Shown here one piece after another: positions 7,202 through 62,446 of a DNA stretch of 64,000 nt. The notes beneath the pieces were generated by a model. It was not told where the DNA came from, ran no database searches, and saw nothing but the letters and a program-made list of their open reading frames with translations. The first letter of the stretch is position 1. Every line of letters begins with the position of its first letter. Origin of the DNA: Methanotrichaceae archaeon (GTDB lineage: Archaea > Halobacteriota > Methanosarcinia > Methanotrichales > Methanotrichaceae). The DNA is taken from NCBI GenBank assembly GCA_963748825.1, contig CAVVKN010000002.1, positions 1-64,000 on the forward strand, written 5' to 3'. The translations under genes were made by a program, and so were the position numbers.

Positions 7202-7213
7202 GCTAAATCAATT

Positions 7214-7226: not shown

Positions 7227-7232
7227 GCAGTT

Positions 7233-7631
7233 TCACCTGTAGGACTTTTGGTACTTAGACCTGGCACCAAGTCCACCGAACTTTTTCCTCTCTTTGTGCC
7301 GATGATCGTTGACGAGGAGATTTCGGTCGTACTCGGAGAAAGCCTCTTTCAGTCCGGTATCGCCAGTCCACTCCACAATACCCTTGGCGATGGCCGTTCT
7401 TACGGCATCCGTCTGGCCCATGGTACCGCCGCCGGCAACAACGACATCGATATTCATTGTTTTTATCAGATCTCCCGCGATCTGAACGGGTTCTTGAATC
7501 TTGAGTCTGGCAAGGCGGGGCTCGTAAATCTCTAAGGGCACCTTGTTGATGCGCACAACGCCCTTTCCATCTTTTAAAGTGGCCCTTGCAGTTGCCGTCT
7601 TCTTCTTACCCGAGGTATTAATTATCTTCAT
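7233..7631 (-). CDS. rps9: 30S ribosomal protein uS9
   Basis: [18 protein letters not shown] and the C-terminal [17 protein letters not shown] (archaeal type). Confidence 0.97.
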
Positions 7632-7641
7632 AGCAAGCCCT

Positions 7642-8061
7642 TCAGAAGTTTGCGCCGAGTCTTCGGCTCAAGGCCCCAAGCTCGATATATTTGTTATTGC
7701 TCTCGGTTCTCATCTTAGCAGCGGTTGGTTGCTCTAATGGCATTCCCTTCAGCTCTCTGGGTATGCCCACAAATATCCGCAGCCGGGAGAATGCATCTCT
7801 TCCCCGTCTCATCTTGTAGGGAAGCATGCCACGTACCGTCCTCTTGAGGATCATTTCTGGTCGGCGGGGGAAGTAGGGGCCTCTCTCCTTATGGCCGCGG
7901 TCCCTTGTCTGCCCATACTCAGCAAAAATGGAATCTTTCCCACCAGTAATGAGTGCCTTCTCGGCATTGACGATCTTGACCTCTTCGCCTGCCAGGAGAT
8001 TCTTGGCGGTTACGCTCGCCAGGCGTCCCAGGACCAATCCAGTTGCATCTACTACTATCAT
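7642..8061 (-). CDS. rpl13: 50S ribosomal protein uL13
   Basis: [12 protein letters not shown] and [10 protein letters not shown]. Confidence 0.97.
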
Positions 8062-8065
8062 TGCT

Positions 8066-8425
8066 TCACCTCAAAATCTTTATGCCCGATCCCTTGGGAT
8101 GTTCGGCCATCAGCTTTTCAATCGTCAGACATTTCCCGCCAGCTGCCTGAATCTTGGACAATGCCTGGCTGCTAAAATTGAAAGCTGCCACGGTAACGCT
8201 GTGTTCCAGATCGCCGGAGGCCAGCACTTTTCCGGCCACGAGCACAGTATCGTTAGACTGGGTGTGCCTATTGATCTTGCTGAGGTTTACAGCAGCGTAG
8301 TTGCGACTGGGCTTCTCCATTCTCTTGGCGATATCGCGCCAGAGGGGTGCGCCAGTTTCGCGAGAGGCCGCCTTAAGTTCACCGATAAGACGGACTATCC
8401 TTGGATTTGTCTTTTCAAATGCCAT
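8066..8425 (-). CDS. rpl18e: 50S ribosomal protein eL18
   Basis: [21 protein letters not shown]; GGAGGA SD at 8431-8436 favours the ATG at 8425. Confidence 0.96.
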
Positions 8426-8433
8426 TTCAATCC

Positions 8434-8532
8434 TCCGCACGGCCCCAATCGGGCCGACTCACGCGCAAAGCCGCGCGCGTTCGAACCTGTTATTTGGTTC
8501 ATGCGCCCAGGGCATCATTATCCCTGTGCGGA
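8434..8532 (-). ncRNA. Structured 5' leader of the rpl18e-rpl13-rps9 operon (closing helix plus four hairpins)
   Basis: Helices 8434-8440/8526-8532, 8441-8445/8451-8455, 8461-8466/8475-8480, 8483-8487/8496-8500 and 8509-8512/8522-8525. Confidence 0.6.
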
Positions 8533-8556
8533 ATATCTAGATCGACAATGCGCCAG

Positions 8557-8572
8557 TATTTAAGGGTTTTCC
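8557..8572 (-). promoter_or_regulatory. Archaeal BRE/TATA promoter of the r-protein operon
   Basis: Minus strand GGAAAACCC-TTAAATA, about 25 nt upstream of the structured leader. Confidence 0.6.
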
Positions 8573-8738
8573 AAAGCCTGTCGCAGGGCGGCATAAGAAT
8601 TTTGTCTTGAAAGTAGCAGCAAGACGCTGTCCTGCCATGGAAGTAAGCTGAAGGCATAGAGAACATTTTCGGATCTATAGTTCGTACCAAAAGTAAGGTA
8701 TTAATGTAAGAACCATTAGAAAAATACACTGAAGTAAA

Positions 8739-10001
8739 ATGATCGACATCCTCCTCCCTGCCTGCATCGCTTTTGGTTTTGCTCTGGGAATCCTGAGCGG
8801 CCTTACCCCGGGTCTGCATCTGAACAACTTTGCAGCCATGCTGCTGGCCATCTCGCCGCAGCTGTTGGCCATGGGCCTCTCGCCCTTTCAAATGGCCTCG
8901 ATCATTCTGGCCGCCAGCATCTCTCAAACATTCTTTGATGCCATTCCAGCCATCTTCCTGGGCGCGCCGGACTCTGAGACAGCCTTGACCGTTCTGCCCG
9001 GCCAGAGGCTCATGCTGGAGGGGCGAGGCATCGAGGCGGTGCGGCTCTCGGCTCTGGGCAGTGCGGGATCAGTGCTTTTTGCTATTCTCTTGATCATCCC
9101 GCTTTCCTGGATCGTCTCCAGCTACTACGATTATCTCACAAAATATGTGGGCATTCTGCTTTTAGCCATCGCCCTCATGATGATCAAGTCGGAGAGAGGC
9201 CCCTGGATTGAGGGACAGGGTTCCTGGGTACACTGGAAGTACAAGGCAGTTGCCGCGCTGCTTTTCATAACCAGCGGCCTTCTCGGCATATTTGCTTTTG
9301 ATCACGAGGAGTTGCTGAGTTCACCCCTGGGTCTGGAGCCGCAGGTGCTCCTGCCCCTCCTGTCCGGCATCTTCGGTGCCTCCTCTCTTCTGCTCAGCCT
9401 TTCCACAGAAACGGAGATTCCGGAGCAGAAGGAGAGCGAGATCAAGCTCTCATCCAGCGCCCTCGCCAAAGCAGTCTTCTCCGGCGGCCTGGGGGGCTCG
9501 GTAGTGGCCTGGATTCCCGGTGTCTCGCCTTCCGTAGCTGCGATAACAGCGCGCTTGGGGGCTATTCCTAGCCCGGAGGAGTTCCTGGTCTCTATTGCCG
9601 GAGTGAACACTGCCAACGCCCTATTCTCGCTGGTGGCACTTTATGTGATAGACAAGCCCAGGAGTGGAGCGGCAGCAGCCATCCAGGAGCTTATGACTCT
9701 CGACCAGAGCATATTGGCCCAGATGATACTAATTGTAGTAATAGTTGCGGCGGCATCCTATCTGGCCTGCATTGGCGCGGCGCGCCTGGCCGGGCGGGCC
9801 ATATCCCAACTCAACTACCGGCTGCTCTGTTTAAGCGTGCTGTTCTTTTTGGTGGCTATGACCTACGCTTTTACGGGGATCTTCGGGCTGTTCATCTTCT
9901 TCCTGTCCACGGTGGTGGGCCTGATTGCGCCGGTGGCAGGAATCCACAGGACGCATGCCATGGGGGTGCTGATGCTGCCGCTGATTTTGAGGTATATCTA
10001 G
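8739..10001 (+). CDS. Tripartite tricarboxylate transporter permease (TctA/DUF112 family)
   Basis: Polytopic membrane protein with GLTPGLHLN and IPAIFLGAPD...VLPGQRL. Confidence 0.85.
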   Translation: MIDILLPACIAFGFALGILSGLTPGLHLNNFAAMLLAISPQLLAMGLSPFQMASIILAASISQTFFDAIPAIFLGAPDSETALTVLPGQRLMLEGRGIEAVRLSALGSAGSVLFAILLIIPLSWIVSSYYDYLTKYVGILLLAIALMMIKSERGPWIEGQGSWVHWKYKAVAALLFITSGLLGIFAFDHEELLSSPLGLEPQVLLPLLSGIFGASSLLLSLSTETEIPEQKESEIKLSSSALAKAVFSGGLGGSVVAWIPGVSPSVAAITARLGAIPSPEEFLVSIAGVNTANALFSLVALYVIDKPRSGAAAAIQELMTLDQSILAQMILIVVIVAAASYLACIGAARLAGRAISQLNYRLLCLSVLFFLVAMTYAFTGIFGLFIFFLSTVVGLIAPVAGIHRTHAMGVLMLPLILRYI

Positions 10002-10082
10002 AACGCATAAGTGGAGCGGTTCGCGTTTGATCATGAATATAATCCCGTTCTGCAATTCTCGTAGATTCTCACAAATTCCGAT

Positions 10083-11330
10083 TTATCGAAGCCATGTCCT
10101 ACCTGAGGTTACCAAGAATAGAGCCATGAAGAACCAGCCAAGAAATCCTTCCACCAAACCTATGTATTTATAAATACCAATCCAGATTATCGATTTTGAG
10201 TTGGCAGTAAATGCTAGTGCGCTATAATAAAAAGCATCGCCAATTGACTGGAGTCCGCTGATCCCTCTTCCATTCCAAAGAAGAAATGCAAAAATGGTAA
10301 TTAAAAACGCACTAAAACATAGCGGGCGAAATGGACGGACACCGTAACCGCATGACATGCATGATAATAAATCAAAAACCTTTTTTAATCCTATACCTCT
10401 TTGTTTTTGAATTCGCTTTCTATATAAATAATAACAATTATCTGAGTCATCAAATTGCCCTAAATTTCTAAAATTTGTAACTAATGCCAAAAGTACCGGA
10501 TCATCGCAGCTTAATTGATTCTTGATAGTGTTCCACTGAACATTAACGCGAGTAAACATCGCACCTGTTAGATAGATGTGATTTTCGAAATTGGATGCCG
10601 AGAAGTCCGCAATATAAAAACTTACGTAAGAGAAATCAGAAGTATTATTAAACCTATTATTTATAAAATCTGCAGTTCCCTTCACCTTTGAGCCAATGAA
10701 GAAAACTTTATCACAAAATTGAGTGTTTAATAGCCGGATAGATTCTCCAAAGAACCGACAAAAGGAAAAATCAGCCTTACCACGAAAAACTGCCTTTGAG
10801 AATTCTGCTAAGCCATGGAATACGGCGTAACGGAATGTGGATTCACCCCCGAAGAGGATATTCTTGCTATGCATGCCCCAAAAAAAGGCATCCTTTTGGA
10901 ATATAGCTTGGTCAAACCGAACAAGCGTACCTTCGGTGAATTGAGTATTTGCAAAGCTAACATCATCAATGAATCGAACATTGGCAAAAGAAGCATATCC
11001 TGTGAATATCGCGTCTCCAAATCCAGCAAATTTGCTAAATACGGATCCCTGAAAATCGGCGTTGATAAACGTTGTGCCAGAAAAATCAATATGCCCCATA
11101 AAATTCACGTTAAGAATTCTCGTTAATCCCTGAATATTGGAATGCTTTATCTTTATGGGCATTTTTATGATGCAACGACCATCATCACCCGGCGGCAATT
11201 TTAACCTGCATAGATCTAAATTGCCTGTAATTGTGATCCCGTCATAATCTACCACCTCACTATTTTCGATTTGAGCGATAATAATTTCGGCGGGAATAAA
11301 CTTATTGGGCGAATCAATTTTTGCATCCAT
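10083..11330 (-). CDS. Pentapeptide-repeat protein with C-terminal ion-channel-like membrane domain
   Basis: Repeated ADFxxxxF units; CGYGVRP followed by TM helices and AFYYSALAFT. AT-rich. Start uncertain (11330 or 11384). Confidence 0.8.
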   Translation of the reverse strand: MDAKIDSPNKFIPAEIIIAQIENSEVVDYDGITITGNLDLCRLKLPPGDDGRCIIKMPIKIKHSNIQGLTRILNVNFMGHIDFSGTTFINADFQGSVFSKFAGFGDAIFTGYASFANVRFIDDVSFANTQFTEGTLVRFDQAIFQKDAFFWGMHSKNILFGGESTFRYAVFHGLAEFSKAVFRGKADFSFCRFFGESIRLLNTQFCDKVFFIGSKVKGTADFINNRFNNTSDFSYVSFYIADFSASNFENHIYLTGAMFTRVNVQWNTIKNQLSCDDPVLLALVTNFRNLGQFDDSDNCYYLYRKRIQKQRGIGLKKVFDLLSCMSCGYGVRPFRPLCFSAFLITIFAFLLWNGRGISGLQSIGDAFYYSALAFTANSKSIIWIGIYKYIGLVEGFLGWFFMALFLVTSGRTWLR

Positions 11331-11496
11331 AATAAGGACTTTAGATTTAAACAAAGTATATACCGCTGGCGCCAAAGACTGCAAAGGTTAAGTTAACCGA
11401 GTTGCTCCGGAGCCAATGTGGCGATCAAGATTGTATTCCCTTATCATGGAAAGATTAAAATGATATAATCGCATAAAATTATAGGCAAGGAGATTT

Positions 11497-11784
11497 ATGA
11501 ACGAGCAGATACAAGCGGCACGCGAGAAAGCGCTGGAGATTTTACAGAAGAATGGGATCAAACGCGCCGCCTTCTTTGGCTCCATTGTGAGGGGAGAAAT
11601 GACTGATGAAAGCGACATAGACATCCTTGTCGAATTCGAAGGCCGAAAGAGTCTCCTCGACCTCGCCGGCTTGAAGCTCGATCTAGAGGATGCTCTGCAA
11701 AGGCGAGTAGATCTTCTCACTTACAGGTCGCTGCATCCCATGCTCAAAGACAGGATTCTCGCAGAACAGGTCCCGATATTATGA
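11497..11784 (+). CDS. Minimal nucleotidyltransferase (MNT family)
   Basis: FFGSIVRGE...SDIDILVEF and RRVDL. Confidence 0.9.
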   Translation: MNEQIQAAREKALEILQKNGIKRAAFFGSIVRGEMTDESDIDILVEFEGRKSLLDLAGLKLDLEDALQRRVDLLTYRSLHPMLKDRILAEQVPIL

Positions 11785-11885
11785 CGATTAGTAGCGACTG
11801 CAAGAGCTGAAAGCAATCATTGAAGAAAAATAGGTTCTGCAGGGTTTATTGATCAACCCTGACTCATTTTGTACCCATTAAGTGA

Positions 11886-12071
11886 TTAGTATCTTCTGGG
11901 TGGTCTGGCAGGCTTATGCTTCTGGTAGCAATCGCTGCAGTACACCGGCCTGGAGCCATCGGGCTTGAAGGGAACTTGACATGTCTTTCCGCACTCTGCG
12001 CAGGTGGCATCGTGCATCTCTCTTGGGCCGCTGCTAAAGCCGCCCCTGTTGCCGCTTCCATATCCTTCCAT
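11886..12071 (-). CDS. CxxC-x17-CxxC zinc-finger protein
   Basis: CAECGKTCQVPFKPDGSRPVYCSDCY with Gly/Arg-rich N-terminus. Confidence 0.92.
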   Translation of the reverse strand: MEGYGSGNRGGFSSGPREMHDATCAECGKTCQVPFKPDGSRPVYCSDCYQKHKPARPPRRY

Positions 12072-12395
12072 TTTAATTCACTTACCTTTGGCATCGATTC
12101 CATGAATCGATCCTACTACAAAACATCCTATCAAACTCAATTGATTAGACGATCTGTAGCATCAATTCAGATGTCTAACTTCATTATATACTCGTTGGTC
12201 AAAGCCAACCGATTGAAAATAATGGGAAAGGAAATTGAAATTCATGAGCTTTCGGGGAAATTTTTAGTGGCAGTTTCGATCCATCGCCAGTATTAGATTT
12301 CAGACGACATCGCATTCATGCAAAGGCTTTAACTATCCATTTTGCCATGTCGCTGCCATTACAGCATTTCCAGCAAGAAGCCAGAGGGACCAGCA

Positions 12396-12866
12396 ATGAT
12401 GAACTCAATTAATAGAAAAGCAACATTAATGGCCCTTGCGATCATCTGTTTGCTGCCCCTAGCCATGACGGGAGACTGCCGGGCGGCCCCCGAAGGGCAG
12501 ATGAATGGCAACGCCTCCGGGCCGGTACGGGTGTTTCCAGAGTCTCCTGTTGTCGTGAATGACGGGACCATGGACGAGGCGCTCAAGATCTACTCGCCTT
12601 TTGTCTTGGACTGCTGGGAGATAGGCTGCCGGCCCTGCCAGCTTATCGAGCCAAAGATAAACCAAATGGCAGAGGATTTTAAAGGCCGGATAGTATTCGG
12701 CAAGCTGTGCATCGATCGAAATCCTATTACTATGCGCAAGTATGGGGTATCAAGAACTCCAACCCTGCTTGTCTTCGAAAACGGCACTCTCGTGTATAAG
12801 CAGGTGGGCAATTATCCTCAAGAGGAGCTGGAGCACATAATTCTGACCGTCCTGCATATGCGGTGA
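12396..12866 (+). CDS. Secreted thioredoxin family protein
   Basis: Signal-like N-terminus, CRPC active site and cis-Pro motif TPT. Confidence 0.85.
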   Translation: MMNSINRKATLMALAIICLLPLAMTGDCRAAPEGQMNGNASGPVRVFPESPVVVNDGTMDEALKIYSPFVLDCWEIGCRPCQLIEPKINQMAEDFKGRIVFGKLCIDRNPITMRKYGVSRTPTLLVFENGTLVYKQVGNYPQEELEHIILTVLHMR

Positions 12867-12872
12867 GATCGC

Positions 12873-15269
12873 TTACCCTTTGTAGTCCCCTCCTACCAGT
12901 TCGCGAATCCGCTGTGCGATCTTTGGCCCCACCTTTTCCACCTCTTGCAGCTGCTCAGGAGAGGCGGTCATTACCTTCTCGACGGATCCGAAATGCTTGA
13001 GCAGGTTCTTGGCTACCGCCGGCCCCACGCTGGAAATGGCCGAGATCAAGTACTCTTGCTGCTCTTTGAGCGTCCTGGCGGTCTTGTGGCCATGCACCTT
13101 CGGCTCGTGCCCTTCCCGCATCTCTCTTCGGGCCAGCAGAGCAATAACTGCGGCCGTTTCATCCCGATCTTCCGTGGGAATGATGGGGACGCCGTAGTCT
13201 ACAGCCACAGAGGCCATTGCTCCGCGAATGGAGCTGGCGTTCATCTGCCGGGTGTAAAGATCCCTGCCCTCTAAAATCAAAACCGGCCGATCGTAAGTCC
13301 TGGCCAAATCCGCTATCTGCCGGAATAAGTTTCTCTGCGGATCGATGATCGAGGCCACAAAATCCTGTGCCGTTTTGCGTTCGATGGCCACCCGATCACT
13401 GACCACATAGTCGCCCACCTCCAGATTCTTGACGGTGACATCGAGGCCCAGAGACTCCAGAAGCTTTGCCATCTCTCTCTCCCTTGAGTCCACAAAGATT
13501 TTGGCAGGCATTTTGCCCGGTTCTTCCGCTTCTTTTTGCTCTTTTTTTGCAGCGTTATTCACTTCATGCGGCACGACTCTTTGCCCTTCGTTCTGCTCTT
13601 CGCTTGGCCCTTTGCTCGGCCCAATATTTTGCCATGCAGCCAGGCCTTCATCCTTCTTTGCAGGTCCAGCATGCCCGGCAGGTCCGGCCGGATCCTCGGT
13701 TATCTGAAGCTGCCGGGGCAAGAACTCCACATGCCGCGATTCCTGGGCCTGACCGCTCAGATCTCGCATCTGCCTGTTCATGGTCTTTTCTTTGCGGTCT
13801 GATATCCAGTAATAGGCCTCATCGCGCGTGCCCTTGGCCATTAAAACTACCACTCTGCCGGCTCTCGCCCTGCCGGTCCTGCCTTTGCGCTGAATGCTGC
13901 GAATCTCGGAGGGCACAGGCTCATAAAATAGGACCAGATCCGTGGCAGGAATATCGATTCCCTCTTCCCCCACCGATGTCGCAATGAGGACATTGAATTC
14001 TCCTGCCCGAAATTTCTGCAAAATCTCTGCTTGCTTCTTTTGGCTGAGGCCTTCATCATTCTCGCGGCTGGATTGCCCCACAAATCGCACGGCTCGAATG
14101 GCGGGATCATCTTTCAGGAACTTAAGAAGAGATGTGGCAGTGTCTCGATAGTTGGTAAAGACCATGATGCGAGACTCGGGCTTCGAGCCAATCTGCTCCT
14201 GCAGTATTCTCTTTACCTCGGCAGGCTTGGGGTGCTCCACATCCAGCTTTTGCAGGGCATCTACAACCTGCAGGAACCCGGGGTCTTGCATTATCCGCCG
14301 GGATGCTTTGGAACCGCTTCGCGAGAGGGCTTCACCCTCTAGCCTCTGAAAATATCTGGCCAGTGCATCCGGGCCCTGCGTCTCCGCCAGCTCGACGGCA
14401 TGATGCAGCTTGAAAATCTCGGCCATGAGAGATATGGCCACAAATGTGGATTTATTTGCCTGCGTCTTGGCCGAGGACATGAGAGTGGCCTGCAACGTCA
14501 GAAGCTCCTTCTTGGATGACTTGGCATCGATTCTGACCGGGCTGATGCCTAGCCGGTTCAGATCATCGATTCTGGTCTTGAGCAGCTCCTCGATGGCTGA
14601 GCGGATAAGCAGAAGCTCTTTGGGAACGGTAAGCTTCACCCACTCTATCTCCCGCATGTGGACAAATGGGGCGACATCGGGATCATTTTCCGTACGGGTC
14701 TGGATCTTCTCAATGCCCAGGTTGGTGCAGATCTCGGCAATCTTCTCGCTCTGGCTGCCCGGGCTGGCGGTGATCCCCAGGACCAGGGGGAGGCTTGCCT
14801 CGCGATGATAGCGATCGGCGATATAAACATAAGCATAGTTGCCCACTGCCCGGTGCGCTTCGTCGAAAATCACCAGGGAGACATCTTTAAGATCGATCCT
14901 TCGGGAGAGAAGATCATTCTCGATCACCTGCGGAGTGGAGACAACGATGCTACTTTGCCCCCAGGATTCGACCCTTTTTTCCGGAGGGCTCTCCCCGGTC
15001 ATCATGGAAACTATATCTCTGTCTCTGAGTACACGCTGCAAGAAAACGGCATGCTGCTCCACCAGAGGCTTGGTAGGAGCCAGAAAAAGAATCCTGCCCT
15101 TATCCATTCGAGCCAGCAGCACCATGAGAGCAATGACGGTCTTGCCAAGACCCGTAGGTACTACAATAAGGCTGGAGGCCTTGAGAGCCGTGGCGGCCAA
15201 ATCCAACTGGAAGAGCCGCTTCTCTACCGTTTGCGGTAATAGGTGCGGATGCTCCAGGTAGGTGCACAT
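12873..15269 (-). CDS. hef: Hef (FANCM-like) DEAH helicase with ERCC4 nuclease domain
   Basis: PTGLGKT, DEAH, QRKGRTGR, ERCC4 motifs VDSRE/GDY/ERK and C-terminal HhH. Confidence 0.95.
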   Translation of the reverse strand: MCTYLEHPHLLPQTVEKRLFQLDLAATALKASSLIVVPTGLGKTVIALMVLLARMDKGRILFLAPTKPLVEQHAVFLQRVLRDRDIVSMMTGESPPEKRVESWGQSSIVVSTPQVIENDLLSRRIDLKDVSLVIFDEAHRAVGNYAYVYIADRYHREASLPLVLGITASPGSQSEKIAEICTNLGIEKIQTRTENDPDVAPFVHMREIEWVKLTVPKELLLIRSAIEELLKTRIDDLNRLGISPVRIDAKSSKKELLTLQATLMSSAKTQANKSTFVAISLMAEIFKLHHAVELAETQGPDALARYFQRLEGEALSRSGSKASRRIMQDPGFLQVVDALQKLDVEHPKPAEVKRILQEQIGSKPESRIMVFTNYRDTATSLLKFLKDDPAIRAVRFVGQSSRENDEGLSQKKQAEILQKFRAGEFNVLIATSVGEEGIDIPATDLVLFYEPVPSEIRSIQRKGRTGRARAGRVVVLMAKGTRDEAYYWISDRKEKTMNRQMRDLSGQAQESRHVEFLPRQLQITEDPAGPAGHAGPAKKDEGLAAWQNIGPSKGPSEEQNEGQRVVPHEVNNAAKKEQKEAEEPGKMPAKIFVDSREREMAKLLESLGLDVTVKNLEVGDYVVSDRVAIERKTAQDFVASIIDPQRNLFRQIADLARTYDRPVLILEGRDLYTRQMNASSIRGAMASVAVDYGVPIIPTEDRDETAAVIALLARREMREGHEPKVHGHKTARTLKEQQEYLISAISSVGPAVAKNLLKHFGSVEKVMTASPEQLQEVEKVGPKIAQRIRELVGGDYKG

Positions 15270-15583
15270 GATTGATCCAATGCTCTCTTGTTGTATTTGA
15301 TTTCATTGTATCAAAGCTGGTTCAAATTCCCTGGCTCTTTTGGGGTAGATTAGGTCTATTGATCTATATTTATTATTAATATTATATCATCTATACGATC
15401 CTTAGACTTATCATGGCTTTCCTAAACTCGTTCCTGGATACGAGGAAGATTACAAGAATCTGAGTGGTTTTGAAGGATAAATTTATATAATATAAAAGTA
15501 ACACATTGATAGAAAGCTAAATCTCGCTTATTTAGCGAAATAGCTTAAATTGATCGCTTAAAAAAAAGGGGGCGAAAAAGAAA

Positions 15584-16384
15584 ATGAAGGGAGTAGTAAT
15601 AGTAGCATTTATGCTTGCAATTGCCCTTATAGGGGGTTGCGGCACCGTGCTAGCTAATCCACCACTGGTACCACCAGTGCAGTATGAACAGTTCTGTGAA
15701 GCACAAAAAGTGTCCGGAACAGGAATTATCGATGTCAGCACGTCGATAATCGATAAGAAGATCGCACTTGAATACTACAACACCATGGCCGGCGACGGCG
15801 ACATGGAGCTTGACTCCGAGCATGCTTACTCTCAAGATCCTGAGAAGCTAAAGAGGACTGTAAGCTCGGTAAACAACAGCAACGAGTCCGGCTTTAACCT
15901 CGTCGAAACCACCAAGCTGACATATGCAGGCGATACACCTCTGACCGGCGGCAAGTACCTGCATTCCAAGGCATTTTACGGCGGCATCGGCGCTGATGTT
16001 CAGGAGATGTTCTCCGTAAACGAGATGGAAAAGGATGAAACCGCATTCTTTGCCTCTACGACGCCTTATCGGCCGAAGGACAATGTCAGCCCGGAGGACT
16101 TGATCAAAAAGCTCAAGGCTGCAGGAAGAAACACTTCCGAAGTCGAGAGGCTCATGACGGCCAGCAATGATATCTATGTCCCGTCCCATCTCATCGGCCT
16201 TGAGACCAAGAACTCCTTCAATGGTACCTGGGGCACCGATGCCAAGTGGCACAAGATATTCTACAAGGATATCAAGGCCCACGAGATGTTCACAGGAACC
16301 TTCGAGGCAGAGAAGACCATAAAGTTCCATGAGAATCCCGTGCCCGAAAGAATCCGTGTGCCATGTGAAGGCATTGACTGCTAG
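15584..16384 (+). CDS. Secreted hypothetical protein
   Basis: Signal peptide; beta-rich; shares motifs with the adjacent ORF. Confidence 0.8.
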   Translation: MKGVVIVAFMLAIALIGGCGTVLANPPLVPPVQYEQFCEAQKVSGTGIIDVSTSIIDKKIALEYYNTMAGDGDMELDSEHAYSQDPEKLKRTVSSVNNSNESGFNLVETTKLTYAGDTPLTGGKYLHSKAFYGGIGADVQEMFSVNEMEKDETAFFASTTPYRPKDNVSPEDLIKKLKAAGRNTSEVERLMTASNDIYVPSHLIGLETKNSFNGTWGTDAKWHKIFYKDIKAHEMFTGTFEAEKTIKFHENPVPERIRVPCEGIDC

Positions 16385-16441
16385 GCCGAGAAAGCCTGCA
16401 GTTTTTTCTTTTTTTTTTAAAGCTTTAGGTGGGGGGTTAGC

Positions 16442-17626
16442 ATGAAAAGACAAATGATTTGGATAATGATAACATTCATCCTGACGGCAGCCCCGGTATT
16501 GGCAACGGTTGAGGACTCGGGCATGGCTCCTGGTGATGTTTCGAGCAGCCCATGGACTGGTTTCACATCGCCAACTTTGCCTACATTTCTGCCCAGCCCC
16601 TGTTCCGGTGATTCCGGTAGCCTCTTCGTTGCCATCGGCCTTACCGGGCCAGAGTCAGAACCGGATAAATTGTATACAACCCCGGGCAAACCACTGGACT
16701 TCATGGTCACGGTAAGTAACGATGGTAGAACGGAGGTGGAGGCACAGGTCGGCGTCAAGCCGGAGGGCTGTCCATTTGAATGGTTTAGCTGGACGACCAC
16801 TCCCATGACCATTCCGGCTGGAGTCTCTCGCTCGGTGGCCCTGCAAGTTTTTCCGGATACAAACGCAGTAGCCGGGGAGTACAGATTCGCGGTGGAGGCC
16901 TCGGCCAAATGCCGCAGCTCTGGGCAAAGAGAAGCTAAATTCAAGGTGCAAGCATTCGACTACGCTTCAGAGACCACTGTCGCCGGCACAGGCCAGTTTC
17001 AGATGAATAAAGACCTCAGATCCATGAACTCTGGCATCAAATCCACCAAAAACGTGCTGTTTTCCGGCAGCGTGGATGCTCTAGTAAAGAATGAATATAT
17101 GGTGGACGAGGCATTGGGCAAAAATGCCAACTTCCAGGAACAGGATGCAGTTGACAACTACAATGCCGTCTCTCTTGGGGATGCGCTTTTAGGGACAGAG
17201 AGCTTCAAGAGTTCTGCGATCTTCGGTGGAGTGGGTGCCAAAGTCCGGGAAAGCTATGATGTGCAGCAGATGGAGTTCAAGAACCAGGATTTCGTACTGC
17301 ATCAGACAGGATCTCTAAAGAAGACGGCAGAGTTCAAGACGATGGACAACTTCACTGGATATTACATGATAGATGCCAAGCAGGTAATTCCCGGTCAGAA
17401 GAATCTGAAGGAGTTTGAGGAGTATTTCGGATCCTTCGAGATCAATCGAAGAATACTCTTCCGCAATAAGCCGACATCCGAATCTCTGTGCTTTGAGGCA
17501 GATTGCGCGAAAAAGCCAGGCCCCGATAATAGCTATAAAGCCCCAGGGCAATTTGTTAGCCCCTGTTCAAGCGGCTCATGTAATAAATTCACGAATGCTC
17601 TCAATGCCTTCTCTAAGTCCGCTTGA
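16442..17626 (+). CDS. Secreted hypothetical protein (Ig-like N-domain plus domain paralogous to 15584-16384)
   Basis: Signal peptide; Ig-like segment (VTVSNDG...AGEYRFAVEA); C-domain motif FGGVGAKVRE. Confidence 0.8.
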   Translation: MKRQMIWIMITFILTAAPVLATVEDSGMAPGDVSSSPWTGFTSPTLPTFLPSPCSGDSGSLFVAIGLTGPESEPDKLYTTPGKPLDFMVTVSNDGRTEVEAQVGVKPEGCPFEWFSWTTTPMTIPAGVSRSVALQVFPDTNAVAGEYRFAVEASAKCRSSGQREAKFKVQAFDYASETTVAGTGQFQMNKDLRSMNSGIKSTKNVLFSGSVDALVKNEYMVDEALGKNANFQEQDAVDNYNAVSLGDALLGTESFKSSAIFGGVGAKVRESYDVQQMEFKNQDFVLHQTGSLKKTAEFKTMDNFTGYYMIDAKQVIPGQKNLKEFEEYFGSFEINRRILFRNKPTSESLCFEADCAKKPGPDNSYKAPGQFVSPCSSGSCNKFTNALNAFSKSA

Positions 17627-18177
17627 TATTTTTTTATTATTTTGAATACCCAGCCGCAGAGCTGCTGTATACTCAAAATAATAAATATAAATAATAATAT
17701 ATGTATGTAGCATTTTCATTGTTGGGCATTTATCGAAATAAGTAAATGGCGAATTTGCTAAAGGAATTAGGCGAAGATCTCGGGGGTAATGAAAGAATAT
17801 GTCATTTCAATCTTCCATTGCTCTTCGCCCAATCTACTAACTGCGTTCATTCTATTTAAATCTTTTCTTATTAATTAAGTATATTTAAGATTGCCTTTAT
17901 TTTAGAGATCATAAACACAATGCTATTATTGAATATCACAATCAATTATGTTGCATTACAATTTATTTAATGTATTTATGTCATATTCATAACACAATCC
18001 CTCCGACTTTTTTATTAAATTTTTATAGCATTATTCAATATACTTGCGTTGGATTTGGAGAATTATTGGTATTGAGTCTAATGGCCCCGATATAAGCAAA
18101 AGGAATAAATGGTTAAAGCTCACGTACCTGAAAAAGGGGTCTGATTGAGTACCCTTTTGAGAAAGGAGGTTCATAAA

Positions 18178-57093: not shown

Positions 57094-57440
57094 TCACGGG
57101 CTCTTTCTGCTCCTTCCCAGCACCATCTGCCGTGTTGCCCTATCCGCCTCTATATTGCGCCGGCAGATCGGGCAGACCCGGACCCATTCCAGGCCCTCAG
57201 AGTCCTTCTGCATGTTGGCAGGCAGAGAGGATTCGATCCTCCTCAACATGGGCTCCGTGGCATAGCGCGATGTGCAGATCTTGCAGGCCACCAGATCAAA
57301 GGACACATCAGGCTCCGGCACGGCCTCATCGAAAAGCACCAGAGTCAGAGCCTTGGCAGGGCAAAACTCCACGCAAAGATCGCACTTGTATGCCGAGCTT
57401 GTCAGTCCAGACGACTTCGATGAGACTGGCCAATATGCAA
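57094..57440 (-). pseudogene. 5'-truncated 4Fe-4S binding protein remnant
   Basis: YKCDLCVEFCP lacks the first Cys of CxxCxxCxxxCP; CKIC and CPIC follow; in-frame stop just upstream with no ATG. Confidence 0.55.
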
Positions 57441-58275: not shown

Positions 58276-59526
58276 GTGAACAAAGAGTCTCATGTCCGTC
58301 ACCTTATCCGTAAAATAAAGGCATCCACCGCATCTACAAAGTTCAGCGAGGAGCCGTTAATATTAGGGCTAGCCCTATTACTAATGCTATTACTACTGTA
58401 TGCCTTTGGGGCCTTTGCGCCTCAGGAGGGGATGTGGAATGGAACCTATGGCGGTACTGGGTCGGATGTTGGAAACTCAGTCTTACAGGCCAAAGATGAC
58501 GGATATGTCATTGCAGGCACCACCAGTTCCTATGGTGTTGGTAAAGGTGATGCCTGGCTGATAAAGACGAATCAAAAGGGCAACGAGAAGTGGAACAGGA
58601 CTTTCGGCGGATCTAGCGATGACTCTGGTGAAGTAGTGTTGCAGATCGAAGACAGCAGCTATTTGCTCGCCGGCGCGACAAGCTCCTTTGGTGCTGGAGA
58701 TTTTGATGCCTGGCTGATAAAGACCAACTTTGATGGGAAAGAGCATTGGAATAAAACCTATGGAGGGTCCAGCTACGATTGGGGTTACTCGGTTCAGGAG
58801 ATAAAAGATGGTGGCTATATCATCGCTGGTGAGACGAGATCCTATGGGGCCGGTGGAAGCGATGTTTGGCTGATAAAAACCGATGCGTCCGGTAATGAGG
58901 ATTGGAATAGAACCTTCGGAGGGTCGAAGGACGACGGCGGTCGTGCGGTACAAAGGACTAAGGATGACGGCTATGTTATCGCAGGTTTCACAGAGTCTTA
59001 TGGTGCAGGCGGCAAAGATGTCTGGCTGATAAAGACGGATGCTGCGGGCAAAGAGCAATGGAATATAACTTTTGGGGGATCGAGAGACGACTGCGGAGAA
59101 TCAGTCCAGCAGGTAAAAGATGGTGGCTACATCATCGCAAGCGGTGCAAATGCTCCTCTGACTAATAAATCCCTCACGGGTGATGCCTGGCTGATAAGGA
59201 CTGATTCCAATGGCACCATGCAATGGGGCAAGATCTTCAGCTTCGGGAATTCGGACTATAATCTTGGCACCGCAGCGCAAGAGACAAAAGATGGCGGCTA
59301 TATCCTCGCAGGTTACGGCTTAGGTACTGAGATAGACGCATGGCTGATAAAAACCGATAACGTGGGAATGAAGAAATGGGATAGAGTCCTCGATGAATCG
59401 GGCAGAAATGAAGGCTCATCGGTCCAGCAAGCTAATGATGGCAGTTACATCAGTACTGGTTGGACGATCTCTTCCGGAAATGTCGATGCCTGGCTAATGA
59501 AAATAGCGGAGAGAATGGAGTCTTAA
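58276..59526 (+). CDS. Membrane-anchored/secreted 7-repeat beta-propeller protein
   Basis: N-terminal hydrophobic segment; seven ~52-aa repeats W(N)xTFGG...DGGYIIAG...DxWLIKTD. Confidence 0.85.
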   Translation: MNKESHVRHLIRKIKASTASTKFSEEPLILGLALLLMLLLLYAFGAFAPQEGMWNGTYGGTGSDVGNSVLQAKDDGYVIAGTTSSYGVGKGDAWLIKTNQKGNEKWNRTFGGSSDDSGEVVLQIEDSSYLLAGATSSFGAGDFDAWLIKTNFDGKEHWNKTYGGSSYDWGYSVQEIKDGGYIIAGETRSYGAGGSDVWLIKTDASGNEDWNRTFGGSKDDGGRAVQRTKDDGYVIAGFTESYGAGGKDVWLIKTDAAGKEQWNITFGGSRDDCGESVQQVKDGGYIIASGANAPLTNKSLTGDAWLIRTDSNGTMQWGKIFSFGNSDYNLGTAAQETKDGGYILAGYGLGTEIDAWLIKTDNVGMKKWDRVLDESGRNEGSSVQQANDGSYISTGWTISSGNVDAWLMKIAERMES

Positions 59527-59784
59527 GTGGATTTTGCATTCTCTCCATTCATAGCCATTTTTCAGGCAGTTCTCTTTTCCAGCTTTCTCTGTGCTAAATA
59601 CTTGTGTGAAATAATTTCAGAATGATGGCACTTGAAAAGAGTTATGCCGTCCACTTATTCAGTTTGCATAGTTGCAATATGCTACGATATTAGTAATAAA
59701 ATATCTGCTGCATGCATGCTAAAGCTAAAATCCCTATCAGTGGCAAGCTGGAATGAAGATGCCTTTATTTAAACCTTTTCTTTT

Positions 59785-59856
59785 TGTTCAGAAAATCCGA
59801 ACAAACTGGTTAATATAGTATTTAAATCTTCTCTTTATGTTCGGAAAATCCGGGCA
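59785..59856. promoter_or_regulatory. Two TGTTC(G/A)G-AAAAT-CCG(A/G)(A/G)CA palindromic operators flanking a TATA-like box
   Basis: 59785-59803 TGTTCAG-AAAAT-CCGAACA and 59838-59856 TGTTCGG-AAAAT-CCGGGCA, with TTAATATA/TTTAAAT between them. Confidence 0.65.
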
Positions 59857-59944
59857 ATTTCAATAGATTTATCTAGTTATGAGTGGTATCAGTGGTTGTG
59901 CTTCCAAAAAGCACAGTTGAGCGAGTAAAGAGTGGGGAAATGTT

Positions 59945-60877
59945 ATGGAAGAAAAAGAAGCAAAGGATAAGCTGGCAAGCCTGCCTGTGAACCAGGCACC
60001 TTGCCAGGAGAGCCAAGAAAACAAAGCATCCTCCTCTCAGGAAATGGCAAAGCGTAGCTGTGGATGCGGAGAAGGTGCGAAAGCCAAGGGCACAAATGCG
60101 CCCCAATACGTCTACGCCCTTGGAAAGATCGAACCTCGCTTTCGAAGCATGGCCGTGGAAAGAGAGTTTGCCCAGGCCACTGGCAGGGCGGAGACAACCG
60201 GACTTACGGATCAACAGGCCTTCTATTCGGTTCTGTCAAAGAAGGAAAATAGGTATCTGGTACGTGATCTGTGTTGGGCCCTGGCCATAGGGGGTGTGGC
60301 CGCCTATATCCTGTTGCCGAAGGACCCATTGGATTTTGATCGTCTGGTGGAATCTGTCAATCCTCAACAGAATAAAGCGGACATAGATATCGTGGTCGGA
60401 TTAAAGGGACCAGTTGCTCCGCCTGAAATGTGCGCCGGGCTGCAGGTTCCCATAGTTGGGTTCGATCAGCTCTTCTCATTCAATAGAGAAGAGTTCATAA
60501 GGTCTATTCCACGTCCTGAGTCGATCCCTGAAAAGCAGGAGGAGAAGTTCAGAGCTGCCGCCAATGAGCTGTTCGACAGGATCCTGCAAATGGCGGACAA
60601 TACTGGAGCCACTGATGAACATAGGGCGCTGAATTACCTTTCAGTCCGATATCCAGCAATCTATGCCAAGGCGGCAGAGGAGTTCGAGTACAACTTTTCC
60701 CTGACAGGCGTAGAAGCCAGGCTATCGAGGCTAAGCGGAGCGCGAAAGATAGTCTCTGTGATCTTCACCTACACTAACAGGGAGACCGATGTCGTTGAGA
60801 AGTACTTCGTGCGCGTGGATGTGAGCGAAGAGTTTCCATTCCTGGTCACCAAGATGGCGCCGTACTACGACAGGTGA
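59945..60877 (+). CDS. Stand-alone PatG/PatA C-terminal DUF (PatG_D/PatG_C-like) protein
   Basis: SCGCG, YVYALGKIEPRF, NRYL..LCW, MCAGLQVP, NTGATDEHRALNYL.VRYP and EKYFVRVDVSEEFPFLVT; no S8 protease domain. Confidence 0.85.
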   Translation: MEEKEAKDKLASLPVNQAPCQESQENKASSSQEMAKRSCGCGEGAKAKGTNAPQYVYALGKIEPRFRSMAVEREFAQATGRAETTGLTDQQAFYSVLSKKENRYLVRDLCWALAIGGVAAYILLPKDPLDFDRLVESVNPQQNKADIDIVVGLKGPVAPPEMCAGLQVPIVGFDQLFSFNREEFIRSIPRPESIPEKQEEKFRAAANELFDRILQMADNTGATDEHRALNYLSVRYPAIYAKAAEEFEYNFSLTGVEARLSRLSGARKIVSVIFTYTNRETDVVEKYFVRVDVSEEFPFLVTKMAPYYDR

Positions 60878-60901
60878 ATAAATAAAACGGAGGTGAAATA
60901 T

Positions 60902-61078
60902 ATGACATGTTATTGCTGCTATAAATCCAATGGATCCTGTAGCTCTGGCCTCTTTTGTGCCTGGAACAACGTGGGCGCAGCATGCTCTGCTGCAGCTTCT
61001 GATTTTGCACGACGTTGTGGCAGTGGAGGGGGCTCTCTCTACTGGGGAATATACCCAGATTATTACTGCGGTTATTAG
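60902..61078 (+). CDS. 58-aa cysteine-rich peptide (8 Cys), putative RiPP precursor or toxin
   Basis: GGAGGTGA SD at 60889-60896; 24 bp after the PatG-DUF stop; followed by a T-rich terminator. Confidence 0.7.
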   Translation: MTCYCCYKSNGSCSSGLFCAWNNVGAACSAAASDFARRCGSGGGSLYWGIYPDYYCGY

Positions 61079-61237
61079 GGAAATATGTATTAAAAATTTT
61101 TATTTTTTATTTTAAAAGTTATCTATTTATGATATATTTGTGAAATATTCTACATTAGGATTAAAAAATAATTGCCATCTTGCGATGACAATCTGATGAC
61201 AATCCACTTACTATGGACTATTCTTCCTACAACAATT

Positions 61238-62446
61238 TCACGTCTCTTTTAGTTTTATTAGCCAAGTATCAATATCGTATGAAGTGCGGCGATGCGCATT
61301 TGTGCTGCCCGCAATTATATATCCATCTTTTATCTCTTGAACGGAATTTGCACTCTGTGTTCCCTGTCCTCCAAAGGCTTTGGTCCATTTTAAAGTCCCA
61401 TCGGAATCAATCTTTATCAGTAGAGCGTCACCTGGATCCGTGGCATTAGTGTTTGTGTAACCTGCGATGATATACCCGCCATCCTTTGTCTCCTTTATCC
61501 AATCGCCTTCATCTCTGCCAGGTCCACCAAATGTTTTATTCCACTCTACAATACCCTTTGAATTAGTTTTCACTACTAAGACATCGCTTTCCAGCTCAGC
61601 TTCATTAAACAACGCATTCGTCCATCCTGTAATAATATATCCTTTACCTTTTATTTCTTGAACAGATCTGCCAACATCCCCACTAGATCCGCCAAAAGTT
61701 TTATCCCATTCTTTATTTCCATCTGAATCTGTCTTTATCAGCCATGCATCAGCACTACCTGCACCATACGATTCAGTAAGACCTGTTACGATAAAACCAC
61801 TATCTTCTGTTTCAACTACTGACCACCCTTCATCATCCCCTGGCCCACCGAACGTTTTGTTCCACTGCTCTTTACCTGTTGAATCAGTCTTTATAAGCCA
61901 CAGATCGTCCTTTCCAAAGCCGTATGAGCTAGTAGCACCTGCAATGATATACCCGTCGTCTTTTGTCTCTTGGACCGAGTAGCCAGCATCATTATCCCGG
62001 CCTCCGAAAGTATTATCCCATTTTTTATTTCCCTTTGAATCCGTCTTTATTAGCCATGTATCGCTTTTTCCATTTCCATAGGACTCAGTGTAGCCTGTAA
62101 TAATGTATCCGCCATCTTTTGCCTGTTGGACGGACATACCTACATCAAGATTTACTCCACCAATGGTCTTATTCCACTCCTCAGTGCCATTTGAATCGGT
62201 CTTTATCAGCCAGAGATCACCGCCTCCCGCACCATAAGACTCTGTTAAACCTGTTAAGATGTACCCACTATCTCTTGTTACTTGGACTGAACCTCCTGGG
62301 TCGTTGCCATTGCCGCCGAAAGTTTTGTTCCATACCTCTTCAGGCTGAGCTGAAGCACCTAATATACTTAGCATCAGCATTGCTAACCCCAATATTACTA
62401 CTATCTTCAAAATATATCGCCTCTCAAAGTTGGTTGCATTTTTCAT
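61238..62446 (-). CDS. Secreted 7-repeat beta-propeller protein (paralog of 58276-59526)
   Basis: Signal peptide (ASA-Q); seven WNKTFGG...WLIKTD repeats. Confidence 0.88.
   Translation of the reverse strand: MKNATNFERRYILKIVVILGLAMLMLSILGASAQPEEVWNKTFGGNGNDPGGSVQVTRDSGYILTGLTESYGAGGGDLWLIKTDSNGTEEWNKTIGGVNLDVGMSVQQAKDGGYIITGYTESYGNGKSDTWLIKTDSKGNKKWDNTFGGRDNDAGYSVQETKDDGYIIAGATSSYGFGKDDLWLIKTDSTGKEQWNKTFGGPGDDEGWSVVETEDSGFIVTGLTESYGAGSADAWLIKTDSDGNKEWDKTFGGSSGDVGRSVQEIKGKGYIITGWTNALFNEAELESDVLVVKTNSKGIVEWNKTFGGPGRDEGDWIKETKDGGYIIAGYTNTNATDPGDALLIKIDSDGTLKWTKAFGGQGTQSANSVQEIKDGYIIAGSTNAHRRTSYDIDTWLIKLKET

Follow-up and report, generated by a model that had tools for sequence, protein, structure and literature searches.

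The C-terminal domain of the cyanobactin proteases PatA and PatG is conserved, yet its role has lacked an explanation ever since the structure was determined in 2014 (PMC4259220), and a 2025 paper still describes it as a domain of unknown function, or DUF (PMC12639078). A 64,000-nucleotide stretch of DNA from a Methanotrichaceae archaeon, hereafter called the window, carries this domain as a free-standing protein followed by a very small Cys-rich one. Which role can the DUF have in such an arrangement? A preliminary description of this DNA proposed a minimal system that might bear on DUF function, and our analysis upholds this view, since the unit consists of two genes with no linked S8 protease, YcaO or oxidase.

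Organization of the locus

All features considered here lie on the forward strand, and the elements reported earlier from the open reading frames were all found again in the sequence. The stand-alone PatG-type DUF gene, identified from the ORF list and Pfam, spans 59945..60877 and encodes 310 residues, its stop codon occupying 60875-60877. It is separated by a 24-nt spacer (60878..60901), at which the constant part of the module gives way to the variable one, from the start codon of the peptide gene at 60902..61078. Within the spacer, the Shine-Dalgarno (SD) sequence GGAGGTGA lies at 60889-60896, 5 nt ahead of the ATG. The peptide ORF as listed extends over 60893..61078, and its in-frame ATG at 60902 gives a leaderless product of 58 residues with eight cysteines, ending with TAG at 61076-61078. 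Past this stop the T-rich stretch 61097..61113, as read from the sequence, is a candidate terminator for an archaeon.

Upstream, the putative promoter region (59784..59857) contains an A/T-rich, TATA-like stretch flanked by two near-palindromic motifs of 21 nt, which are candidate operators: TTGTTCAGAAAATCCGAACAA at 59784-59804 and ATGTTCGGAAAATCCGGGCAA at 59837-59857. The motif pattern occurs at just these two sites in 64 kb (four strand-matches, against 0.30 expected), and both copies are kept in 6/6 aligned loci of the genus; we infer that they serve as regulatory sites. Between the second motif and the DUF start, the untranslated stretch 59858..59944, presumably the 5' leader of the mRNA, is nearly invariant in the six loci, and the block of conserved DNA begins approximately 150-250 nt ahead of the DUF start. 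An Rfam search of 59500-61300 returned a chance-level match only and no family on the 5' leader.

The DUF-peptide cassette sits in an islet of about 7 kb that also carries a transposase. The convergent genes downstream of such cassettes always encode membrane-anchored or secreted repeat proteins (SBBP propeller, TPR, HEAT and one unknown type). They were considered as immunity or partner genes of the peptide, an idea that was dropped because one and the same family of peptides can have differing neighbours downstream (locus L013 versus L127 and L128).

Conservation of the gene pair in Methanothrix and related genera

The small Cys-rich ORF is a real and conserved partner of the DUF gene, as the preliminary description had supposed: the comparison of stand-alone DUF neighbourhoods found it in 20 out of 20. 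These are all the window-type loci with readable downstream DNA, they span five genera of the family (Methanothrix and its kin), and in each an ORF of 39-71 residues with six or eight cysteines begins 18-34 nt past the DUF stop. Within the genus the arrangement is tighter, the spacer measuring 23-27 nt in 10/10 loci, nine of which have GGAGGTGA and one GAGGTGA; in all ten, start codon and SD directly precede the Cys-rich sequence. Such regularity is far from what chance would produce, since the source genome has 193 ORFs of 39-75 residues with at least six cysteines in 5.77 Mb of strand sequence, corresponding to 0.0013 expected starts per 40-nt stretch, or 0.00006 if an SD-like motif is included.

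The locus is accessory: PatG_C is present in 4/37 genomes of the genus, with up to seven copies in a single genome. These seven copies carry differing peptide sequences, each window-type DUF gene being followed by one peptide. In one genome, three copies have truncated ABC-ATPase fragments beside them.

Full systems and the parts missing from the archaeal loci

In bacteria and in Methanoperedens-type archaea the DUF belongs to a larger core, in which an S8 protease, a PGF/CxxC mini-protein of approximately 70 residues and the DUF are followed by leader-bearing Cys-rich precursors. Among loci with enough flanking DNA, the protease is found in 44/48, the mini-protein in 63/67 and leader-bearing precursors in 49/59, while no other gene family recurs around the DUF in 82 loci. 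The leader consensus MNxPGFTAEASLY was built from 85 leaders. Bacterial-type loci combine one DUF with arrays of up to several different precursors. A literature search, with subscription journals and supplements outside its reach, found nothing on stand-alone DUF genes with Cys-rich peptides, on the PGFTAE leader or on the split core.

The window-type loci lack these additional components. The window contains no S8 gene, and the only two PF00082 matches of the genome lie on contigs C4 and C10; its single YcaO match, on contig C25, is unlinked to the locus. That no cognate S8, YcaO or oxidase is linked had been noted from the window alone and was borne out by the wider search for S8 or YcaO partners in trans, which returned these matches only. 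Queries with cognate S8 proteins (tblastn) against the archaeon's own genome retrieved only generic genes at E≥2e-7, and the mini-protein had no match there at E≤0.06. The mini-protein was likewise found in 0/13 Methanothrix-type loci; S8 scored 0 in the same loci, of which only 1/13 has enough upstream DNA to judge. Neither gene matched in four extended loci of 8.7-19.5 kb, and in five further related genomes S8 matches reached only 21-36 bits and the mini-protein gave none at E≤0.1. The MNxPGFTAEASLY motif occurs in 0/12 window-type loci.

The locus represents a functional module of two genes, found in Methanothrix and its family, which is the protease-free and leader-free counterpart of the widespread S8/mini-protein/DUF/precursor core. 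Its constant part comprises the promoter, the 5' leader, the DUF gene and the ribosome-binding site; its variable part is a leaderless Cys-rich mini-protein of 39-71 residues with six or eight cysteines, predicted to be translated directly. It amounts to a natural deletion experiment, in which protease, mini-protein and leader are gone together and the DUF is still under strong purifying selection. Since loci without these three components remain intact and have multiplied, the job of the DUF must be independent of protease and leader, and their joint absence makes it separable from leader removal; by the same token, protease and mini-protein would serve the handling of the leader. What the DUF does then most likely concerns the Cys-rich core. 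The best explanation of the whole, to which we assign a probability of about 0.5, is that the DUF acts as a handling factor for an effector peptide.

The DUF protein and the possibility of an enzyme

The statement that the ORF consists only of the PatG-type DUF, without protease, held when checked with profile models: PatG_D (PF18047) matches residues 55-154 at E 4e-34 and 117.8 bits (cut-off 27), PatG_C (PF18065) matches residues 196-307 at E 6e-39 and 133.2 bits (cut-off 25.9; the scan of the genome gave 134.8 bits), and there is no further domain. The NCBIfam model for PatA gave 22.6 bits, below its cut-off of 421. Residues 1-54 have no Pfam match and are modelled as a disordered arm carrying a CGCG motif. 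A CxC or CxxC is present in the N-terminal arm of 11/12 archaeal and 50/70 other proteins; the arm was considered as an essential element of the DUF and rejected as such, the motif missing in 1/12 and 20/70, respectively. The sole PDB relative is 4uvq, matched by sequence profile at E 3.6e-5 and by Foldseek, from a model of moderate pLDDT (65), at E 3.3e-13 with TM 0.65/0.75, the only match below 1e-3; identity in the fold alignment is 18%. In the phylogenetic tree of the DUF, the window-type proteins form separate clades outside the 86-member clade of the full systems, a topology that fits loss and ancestry alike.

Forty-one positions, many of them polar, are at least 95% conserved in the leaderless and full-system groups alike. 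They include E72, E74, R103, Y104, R107, D130, C163 and D218, as well as N219, H226, R227, N230, R235, K286, R290 and D292. The window DUF is 55-68% identical to bacterial members, and 53-67% identical to those of bacterial-type metagenome loci retrieved with the DUF alignment. These numerous invariant polar residues suit an enzyme no less than a holdase. The DUF could then be an enzyme that modifies the Cys-rich core, for instance by cross-linking or derivatising cysteines, the product being a RiPP with the DUF as its sole tailoring enzyme and no leader-guided recognition. The conserved positions and the degree of identity across domains of life speak for such a role, as do the motif N-x-G-x-T-x-x-x-R-A-L-N-[YF], common to the window and PatG DUFs in the profile alignment, and the lack of any other candidate enzyme recurring in the 82 loci. 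However, the fold is presented as novel and without catalytic precedent in the structural report (PMC4259220), only 4uvq matches it in the PDB, and neither Pfam nor NCBIfam recognises a cofactor-binding motif in the DUF. Leader-independent modification of unrelated cores would also be unusual. We regard an enzymatic DUF as possible, if rather unlikely.

The Cys-rich peptide and the possibility of an intracellular role

The peptide begins directly with M-T-C-Y-C-C, and its ATG and SD stand immediately before the Cys-rich sequence, in agreement with the initial impression that it has neither leader nor signal sequence. It has no match in Pfam or NCBIfam. Its AF2 model, of pLDDT 88.6, shows a beta-beta-alpha-beta order that finds no fold match in the PDB (best E 6.8), and a look-up in the ESM Atlas returned no usable match. 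The preliminary description suggested that the DUF might bind, scaffold or package the peptide. A single complex prediction of DUF residues 52-310 with the peptide, run with two alignments, gave scores of 0.66, 0.16 and 0.00, which weigh on neither side of the question of binding.

Homologues of the peptide in eight other loci of three genera keep the Cys scaffold, and the number of cysteines is even in 20/20 archaeal peptides and in 68 of 83 distinct bacterial precursors. The peptides of the ten measured loci of the genus have 43-71 residues and six to eight cysteines; for bacterial cores, counted without the leader, the medians are 50 residues and six cysteines. Comparison of the archaeal peptides with 89 bacterial precursors (phmmer and hmmsearch) gave nothing better than E 0.02, so that homology of the cores is undetected and the label of leaderless core refers to position, size and Cys content.

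The loci yielded neither an exporter nor an immunity gene, and the peptide shows no signal sequence, so that its secretion is assumed. The same finding would suit a pair that acts inside the cell, with the peptide binding a metal or an iron-sulfur-type cluster, or serving as a redox or regulatory factor, and the DUF as its partner or loader. The host, a strict anaerobe, needs much metal, and most DUF arms carry the CxC or CxxC mentioned above. Moreover, the PatG DUF crystallised with bound Zn (PMC4259220). Against this stands the behaviour of the peptide gene, because a housekeeping protein for metal or redox purposes is not exchanged completely between loci that are otherwise almost the same, nor limited to 4/37 genomes of the genus or present as seven differing copies in one genome. 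Inspection of the Cys spacing revealed none of the known cluster motifs. An intracellular function appears quite unlikely.

Selection and exchange of the peptide cassette

The two genes evolve in different ways. The DUF gene has dN/dS ratios of 0.08-0.21 and is, judging from these values, under purifying selection; the peptide shows dN of 0.4-0.96 with saturated dS, even where the dS of the DUF is 0.09. DUFs that are 97% identical stand before peptides that are 36-44% identical, and DNA identity between loci, 95-100% as far as the peptide start, drops there to 35-50%, just after the spacer. Contigs assembled from four RNA runs, which carry no information on strand, start or level, depart from the window sequence at 60896-60899; in two of the libraries the DUF 3' end continues into three other peptide families, which is no proof of transcription. 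No contig of the four runs spans 60942-61300, an uninformative result, given that the relatives sampled there have different cassettes. These breakpoints show that the peptide is swapped as a cassette behind a constant DUF gene, by recombination at the 3' end of the latter. Remnants of the DUF 3' end also occur further downstream in 12 bacterial-type loci (13/95 loci if L019, which holds a whole second DUF copy, is included), and eight of these remnants, spread over six of the loci, have another precursor gene behind them at -7 to +82 nt.

Cassette exchange is a point absent from the preliminary description.

A tight two-gene operon with signals of co-expression, an accessory distribution and a hypervariable small partner might also suggest a toxin/antidote or immunity pair, in which the DUF neutralises a peptide toxic to the producer or its kin. 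Yet antidotes normally co-vary with their toxins, whereas here nearly constant DUFs precede divergent peptides, and a bacterial DUF serves arrays of several different precursors. PADLOC gave no match for the DUF, the peptide, the mini-protein or the flanking propeller proteins, and only generic subtilase models for the bacterial S8. We consider this explanation very unlikely.

That the pair is a decaying remnant of an S8-containing cluster, with a meaningless small ORF, is hardly credible: the common form of the family does have S8, mini-protein and leader peptides, and ABC-ATPase fragments do lie beside three copies, but the ORFs are intact in all readable loci of the five genera, omega is low, SD and spacer are conserved, the Cys scaffold is kept across genera, and chance would place such an ORF at only about 0.001 per site. 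S8-bearing relatives had been anticipated as possible evidence for such a remnant; the larger cluster did prove to be the common form, but the archaeal pair, intact, under purifying selection, present in up to seven copies and with DUFs outside the bacterial clade, is no decaying relic.

A proposed model for the DUF as handling factor

Returning to the DUF as a handling factor, we propose that it serves the Cys-rich core itself, acting as a sequence-tolerant holdase or carrier that would be made together with the peptide. It would respond to a general trait of the peptides, the best candidate being the C-x-C cluster in the first nine residues, hold the peptide, still reduced, in a soluble and harmless state within the cytoplasm, and hand it over for release. 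Once outside the cell, the cysteines, being even in number, would form three or four disulfides about a small alpha/beta fold. The effector would be the peptide, diversifying under the kind of pressure that competition between strains or surface interaction typically exerts. The cytoplasm of a strict anaerobe cannot form disulfides, which we count against this explanation.

A bolder version, doubtful at present, would have the DUF as a leader-independent machine, either carrier or thiol-directed enzyme, that grips whatever core it meets by the N-terminal C-x-C; its own flexible CxC arm, together with a shared metal ion or a mixed disulfide, might provide the contact. The peptides might then represent the first leaderless disulfide-rich archaeal effector mini-proteins, of a fold not in the PDB and traded between strains as cassettes.

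As it works without the protease and leader of its bacterial relatives, the module is a natural minimal system for finding the role of the DUF, and its two genes are few enough for reconstitution. The locus also defines a family of archaeal Cys-rich mini-proteins, whose confidently predicted fold is unmatched in the PDB, and exhibits a mode in which ribosomal peptides are exchanged as cassettes, in an organism of key importance to anaerobic digestion.

Comparison with known systems

Defensin-like, Cys-stabilised alpha/beta mini-proteins resemble the predicted peptide in their small Cys-rich fold and even cysteines; they differ from it in Cys spacing and in the beta-beta-alpha-beta order, for which the PDB offers no structural match. 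Leaderless bacteriocins are also small peptides translated without leader or signal and encoded beside accessory genes. In the Gram-positive examples, such as the enterocin L50 and aureocin A53 types, the peptides are cationic and helical with few Cys, and dedicated ABC exporters and immunity genes accompany them, whereas no such genes were found here, the window peptide is Cys-rich and its effector role is hypothetical. The orphan-cassette arrays of polymorphic toxin loci (CDI and Rhs types) share with the present loci a constant upstream sequence and a swappable variable module downstream; there the two form one fusion protein, whereas here they are separate genes and no immunity gene travels with the cassette.

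Many, though not all, cyanobactin pathways have a linked YcaO heterocyclase. The window locus has neither this nor two other features of these pathways, a linked S8 protease and a short core flanked by leader and recognition sequences. The C-terminal DUF of PatA/PatG (4uvq) has the same two Pfam domains in the same order and the same fold as the window protein, which is however free-standing and only a distant relative in sequence; it lacks an S8 domain, and its disordered N-terminal arm bears Cys. From the alignment, the Zn ligands H1087 and H1090 of the PatG DUF appear to be replaced by Q215 and D218. The cyanobactin partner is a short core that becomes heterocyclised and macrocyclised, in contrast to the large Cys-rich mini-protein considered here, and by NMR the PatG DUF did not bind linear PatE (PMC4259220), which counts against a handling role of the DUF.

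Another close arrangement is the split S8/mini-protein/DUF core. The window type differs in having no S8, mini-protein or leader and a single peptide instead of arrays. Both have a stand-alone DUF, 53-67% identical between them, with Cys-rich ORFs directly downstream, hypervariable peptides and signs that cassettes turn over at the DUF 3' end.

The DUF Protein and Its Downstream Peptide

The defining features of the 310-aa protein encoded at 59945-60877 of the forward strand (ORF listing) place it in the PatG-DUF superfamily, hereafter abbreviated as DUF. Pfam assigns PatG_D to residues 55-154 and PatG_C to residues 196-307, both far above the cut-offs, in agreement with the protease-free PatG-type protein of the preliminary description; residues 1-54 have no Pfam match. 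The NCBIfam model of the cyanobactin proteases PatA/PatG gives 22.6 bits where 421 are required, a low score because the S8 half is missing. The family profile finds a sole match in the PDB, namely the PatG DUF structure 4uvq (E 3.6e-5), which is again the only structure retrieved by a fold search (TM 0.65/0.75) with the AF2 model of the protein (pLDDT 65, residues 1-51 disordered). The gene is present in one copy in its own genome (2.88-Mb assembly, in which the window forms the start of contig C2). A protein that NCBI assigns to Methanothrix soehngenii is 93% identical, which makes the host a Methanothrix. The disordered N-terminal arm (residues 1-54, window positions 59945-60106) contains a CxC or CxxC motif in 11/12 archaeal and 50/70 other DUF proteins; this motif is common but dispensable.

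The peptide ORF follows on the same strand after a 24-nt spacer, running from the ATG at 60902 to 61078 (58 aa, 8 Cys), with GGAGGTGA at 60889-60896, 5 nt ahead of the ATG, and a T-rich stretch at 61097-61113, 3' of the stop. ORF listing and raw sequence reproduce the peptide, gap, Shine-Dalgarno sequence and T-rich terminator reported earlier. No family of Pfam or NCBIfam matched the peptide. Recognisable homologs are encoded at 8 further loci, which belong to three genera; they have the Cys scaffold in common and end in YPD-x-YC. A database search with the peptide alignment returned only 8 predicted proteins, none of them named. The family is predicted to have a fold without PDB match: the confident AF2 model from 9 sequences (pLDDT 88.6; beta 3-9, beta 18-21, helix 24-39, beta 45-51) matches no structure in a PDB search (best E 6.8). 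Every archaeal peptide has C-x-C or CC inside its first 9 residues, and the Cys count is even in 20/20 archaeal peptides and 68/83 distinct bacterial precursors. On both strands of the 2.88-Mb own assembly, only 8 ORFs of 39-75 aa combine six or more Cys with an SD-like motif, the peptide being one of them.

Conservation and Distribution of the Gene Pair

The gene pair is a conserved module that is co-oriented, tightly spaced, accessory and multi-copy. PatG_C is found in 4/37 genomes of the genus Methanothrix, the own genome included (one genus genome has 7 copies, in two arrays), in 25/392 genomes of the class and in 3/401 genomes of a phylum-wide draw. In all 10 genus loci the DUF gene is immediately followed by a 43-71-aa ORF containing 6 or 8 Cys, after a spacer of 23-27 nt that contains GGAGGTGA in nine of the ten and GAGGTGA in one; a downstream Cys-rich ORF is likewise seen in one MAG locus, one metagenome locus and, in four other genera of the family, 8 loci. 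The downstream Cys-rich small ORFs that the preliminary description proposed to look for at homologs are thus present in 20/20 loci with readable downstream DNA, whereas a background count in the own genome predicts 0.0013 ORF starts of this kind in any 40 nt.

Relatives with Protease and Leader

Within E 1e-3 the DUF family exceeds 7,500 proteins (170-543 aa), bacterial members being 55-68% identical to the window's protein; grouping at 50% identity gives 1,527 clusters, 360 of them below E 1e-30, fused forms of ~560-730 aa included. On three plasmids an S8 peptidase gene is directly upstream of the DUF gene, and no S8 was found on a fourth (L018). The bacterial-type set of 82 loci (4 plasmid, 78 metagenome) shows the order of what we call the full system, namely S8, a ~70-aa RLPGF...PCGGC mini-protein, DUF and then one to several ORFs with a MNxPGFTAEASLY leader and a Cys-rich tail. 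Where the flanks suffice, S8 is present in 44/48 loci, the mini-protein in 63/67 and leader-bearing precursors in 49/59, and no further recurrent gene family was found in this set. The mini-protein has the PGF motif in common with the leaders, which contain a median of 0 Cys; the tails after the [VILMA]-x-P-[QA] motif (median 50 aa, 6 Cys) agree with the archaeal peptides in size and Cys content. The full system is also present in another archaeal family, one DUF protein of which starts like an NCBI-named Candidatus Methanoperedens protein. A third family of the class (loci L109, L111 and L119) has more distant fused S8+DUF open frames of 715-754 aa, with a DUF part ~21% identical to the window's and, 3' of the fused gene, two tandem ORFs of 56-80 aa starting M(K/R)(L/I)P(K/M)QA(K/R)PV and having 4-5 Cys; these loci represent a third architecture of DUF and Cys-rich peptides.

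Using three cognate S8 proteins and three mini-proteins as tblastn queries, we found neither gene in the short loci of the window's type or in four extended loci of 8.7-19.5 kb. In the own genome the S8 queries match nothing but generic S8 genes (E 2e-7 or weaker) and the mini-protein is missing, while the search for partners in trans finds two S8 genes on other contigs and one YcaO on contig C25. Across five more genomes of the family the strongest S8 matches score 21-36 bits, in ORFs of 620-800 aa, and the mini-protein was not found; cognate S8 genes of full systems mostly score 280-470 bits where complete on the contig. In the window's type the leader, the protease that serves it and the mini-protein are therefore all missing at once.

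With two fused forms as its root, a tree of 104 DUF sequences, built by a quick method with a long outgroup branch, places the 86 full-system proteins in one starred clade (98) and the 16 leaderless-type proteins in three starred clades at the base, without resolution. The position of the archaeal type outside the full-system clade means that it is no recent offshoot of a bacterial cluster. As to whether S8 and leader were lost or the simplicity is primitive, the S8-bearing outgroup favours a putative loss.

Exchange of Peptide Cassettes

Between loci the peptide shows dN of 0.4-0.96 and saturated dS (Nei-Gojobori), even where DUF dS is 0.09 (L006/L009) or 0.155 (L012/L013), and its change is replacement, not fast point mutation. 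In pairwise DNA profiles a block that opens ~150-250 nt before the DUF start and extends as far as the ribosome-binding site is 90-100% identical; identity falls to 35-50% at the peptide start. Two near-palindromic 21-nt motifs in the upstream block, found nowhere else in the window, flank a TATA-like stretch and are both kept in 6/6 aligned loci; a nearly invariant untranslated stretch comes next. Contigs of four sludge RNA libraries, by themselves no proof of transcription, cover the DUF gene at 88-99% identity; those of two of these libraries (X3 and X9) depart from the window's sequence at 60896-60899 and continue for 158-255 nt, opening with the start codons of other genomic peptide families (translated consensus MGNCCAAC, MANCWCRL and MAQCWGCYQ).

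In 12 bacterial-type metagenome loci (L021, L027, L030, L036, L052, L059, L060, L072, L073, L076, L081 and L087), DNA downstream of the intact DUF gene contains remnants of the DUF 3' end. They are mostly the last 20-60 codons, some containing stop codons, and after 8 of them, which come from 6 loci, a further leader-bearing precursor begins at a distance of -7 to +82 nt. This suggests that new cassettes of DUF 3' end plus precursor displace older ones via recombination, a turnover compatible with an effector under diversifying selection.

Genomic Setting

The DUF-peptide cassette lies within a ~7-kb accessory islet, with housekeeping genes on both sides. Its other genes encode an XRE-type HTH protein and a membrane protein of type DUF2178 (Pfam), two SBBP-type beta-propellers (NCBIfam) and, at 63122-64332, an IS630-like transposase. 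A 285-bp direct repeat with 89% identity (57102-57386 and C2:64538-64822, the latter just outside the window) flanks the islet on either side. The repeated sequence is the 3' end of a ferredoxin-like gene, as if an insertion had duplicated its target. The gene downstream of the peptide gene is always convergent to it and encodes a repeat protein, either membrane-anchored or secreted, of SBBP beta-propeller, TPR or HEAT type or from an unassigned family. Repeat-protein neighbours are seen in the window at 61238-62446 (reverse strand) and 58276-59526 (forward strand) and in loci L005-L014 and L113-L128, among which no strict pairing of the convergent repeat-protein type with peptide family was found.

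In locus L103 (G005:C1:2981000-2999000), three ~3.5-kb repeat units at 5052-13645 each combine an ABC-ATPase fragment with a DUF gene and with a Cys peptide that differs from unit to unit. The ABC-transporter ATPase fragments are truncated (59-182 aa, PF00005), a hint that the ancestral unit had an exporter gene on its upstream side that was later lost. At 14760-17722 of the same locus, a 47-aa ORF with a Cys/Gly-rich tail precedes two ORFs of 502 and 388 aa, radical-SAM/SPASM-like by CxxxCxxC-type motifs read by eye; the group resembles a peptide-maturation locus of its own, close to the DUF array.

Possible Function and Comparison with Known Systems

We prefer, with a probability of about one half, to regard the DUF as a holdase or carrier for a predicted leaderless secreted effector. 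S8 and mini-protein would handle the leader and the DUF would handle the core, its recognition having to be generic because the cores are unrelated in sequence. Against this reading, the PatG DUF gave no binding to linear PatE (PMC4259220) and no exporter was found. Leaderless-type and full-system DUFs share 41 residues conserved at 95% or more in both, many of them polar, so that the core function is retained without protease or leader; the main rival, that the DUF itself is a tailoring enzyme, is possible, if rather unlikely. The even Cys counts are compatible with all cysteines forming disulfides once outside the cell; a metal or redox role within the cell is improbable, and a toxin/antidote pair slightly more so. 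The preliminary description's view of the locus stands as to the conserved DUF-peptide pair, but not in taking S8-bearing relatives to refute a functional pair: relatives do have an S8 cluster, but the archaeal type is no recent offshoot of it and the DUF gene is under purifying selection (omega 0.08-0.21, Nei-Gojobori), a dead remnant being very improbable.

No literature on stand-alone DUF genes with Cys-rich peptides was found, supplements and subscription-only papers lying outside reach. The locus turns a long-standing question on the DUF into a two-gene experiment. It differs from the cyanobactin pathway, since a search of the window locus found neither S8 nor recognition sequences nor a linked heterocyclase, and from the full split system in having neither S8, mini-protein nor leader. 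It works like leaderless peptide loci and like cassette-exchange loci, without being of either family. The locus is a protease-free, leader-free form of the known PatG-DUF kind.
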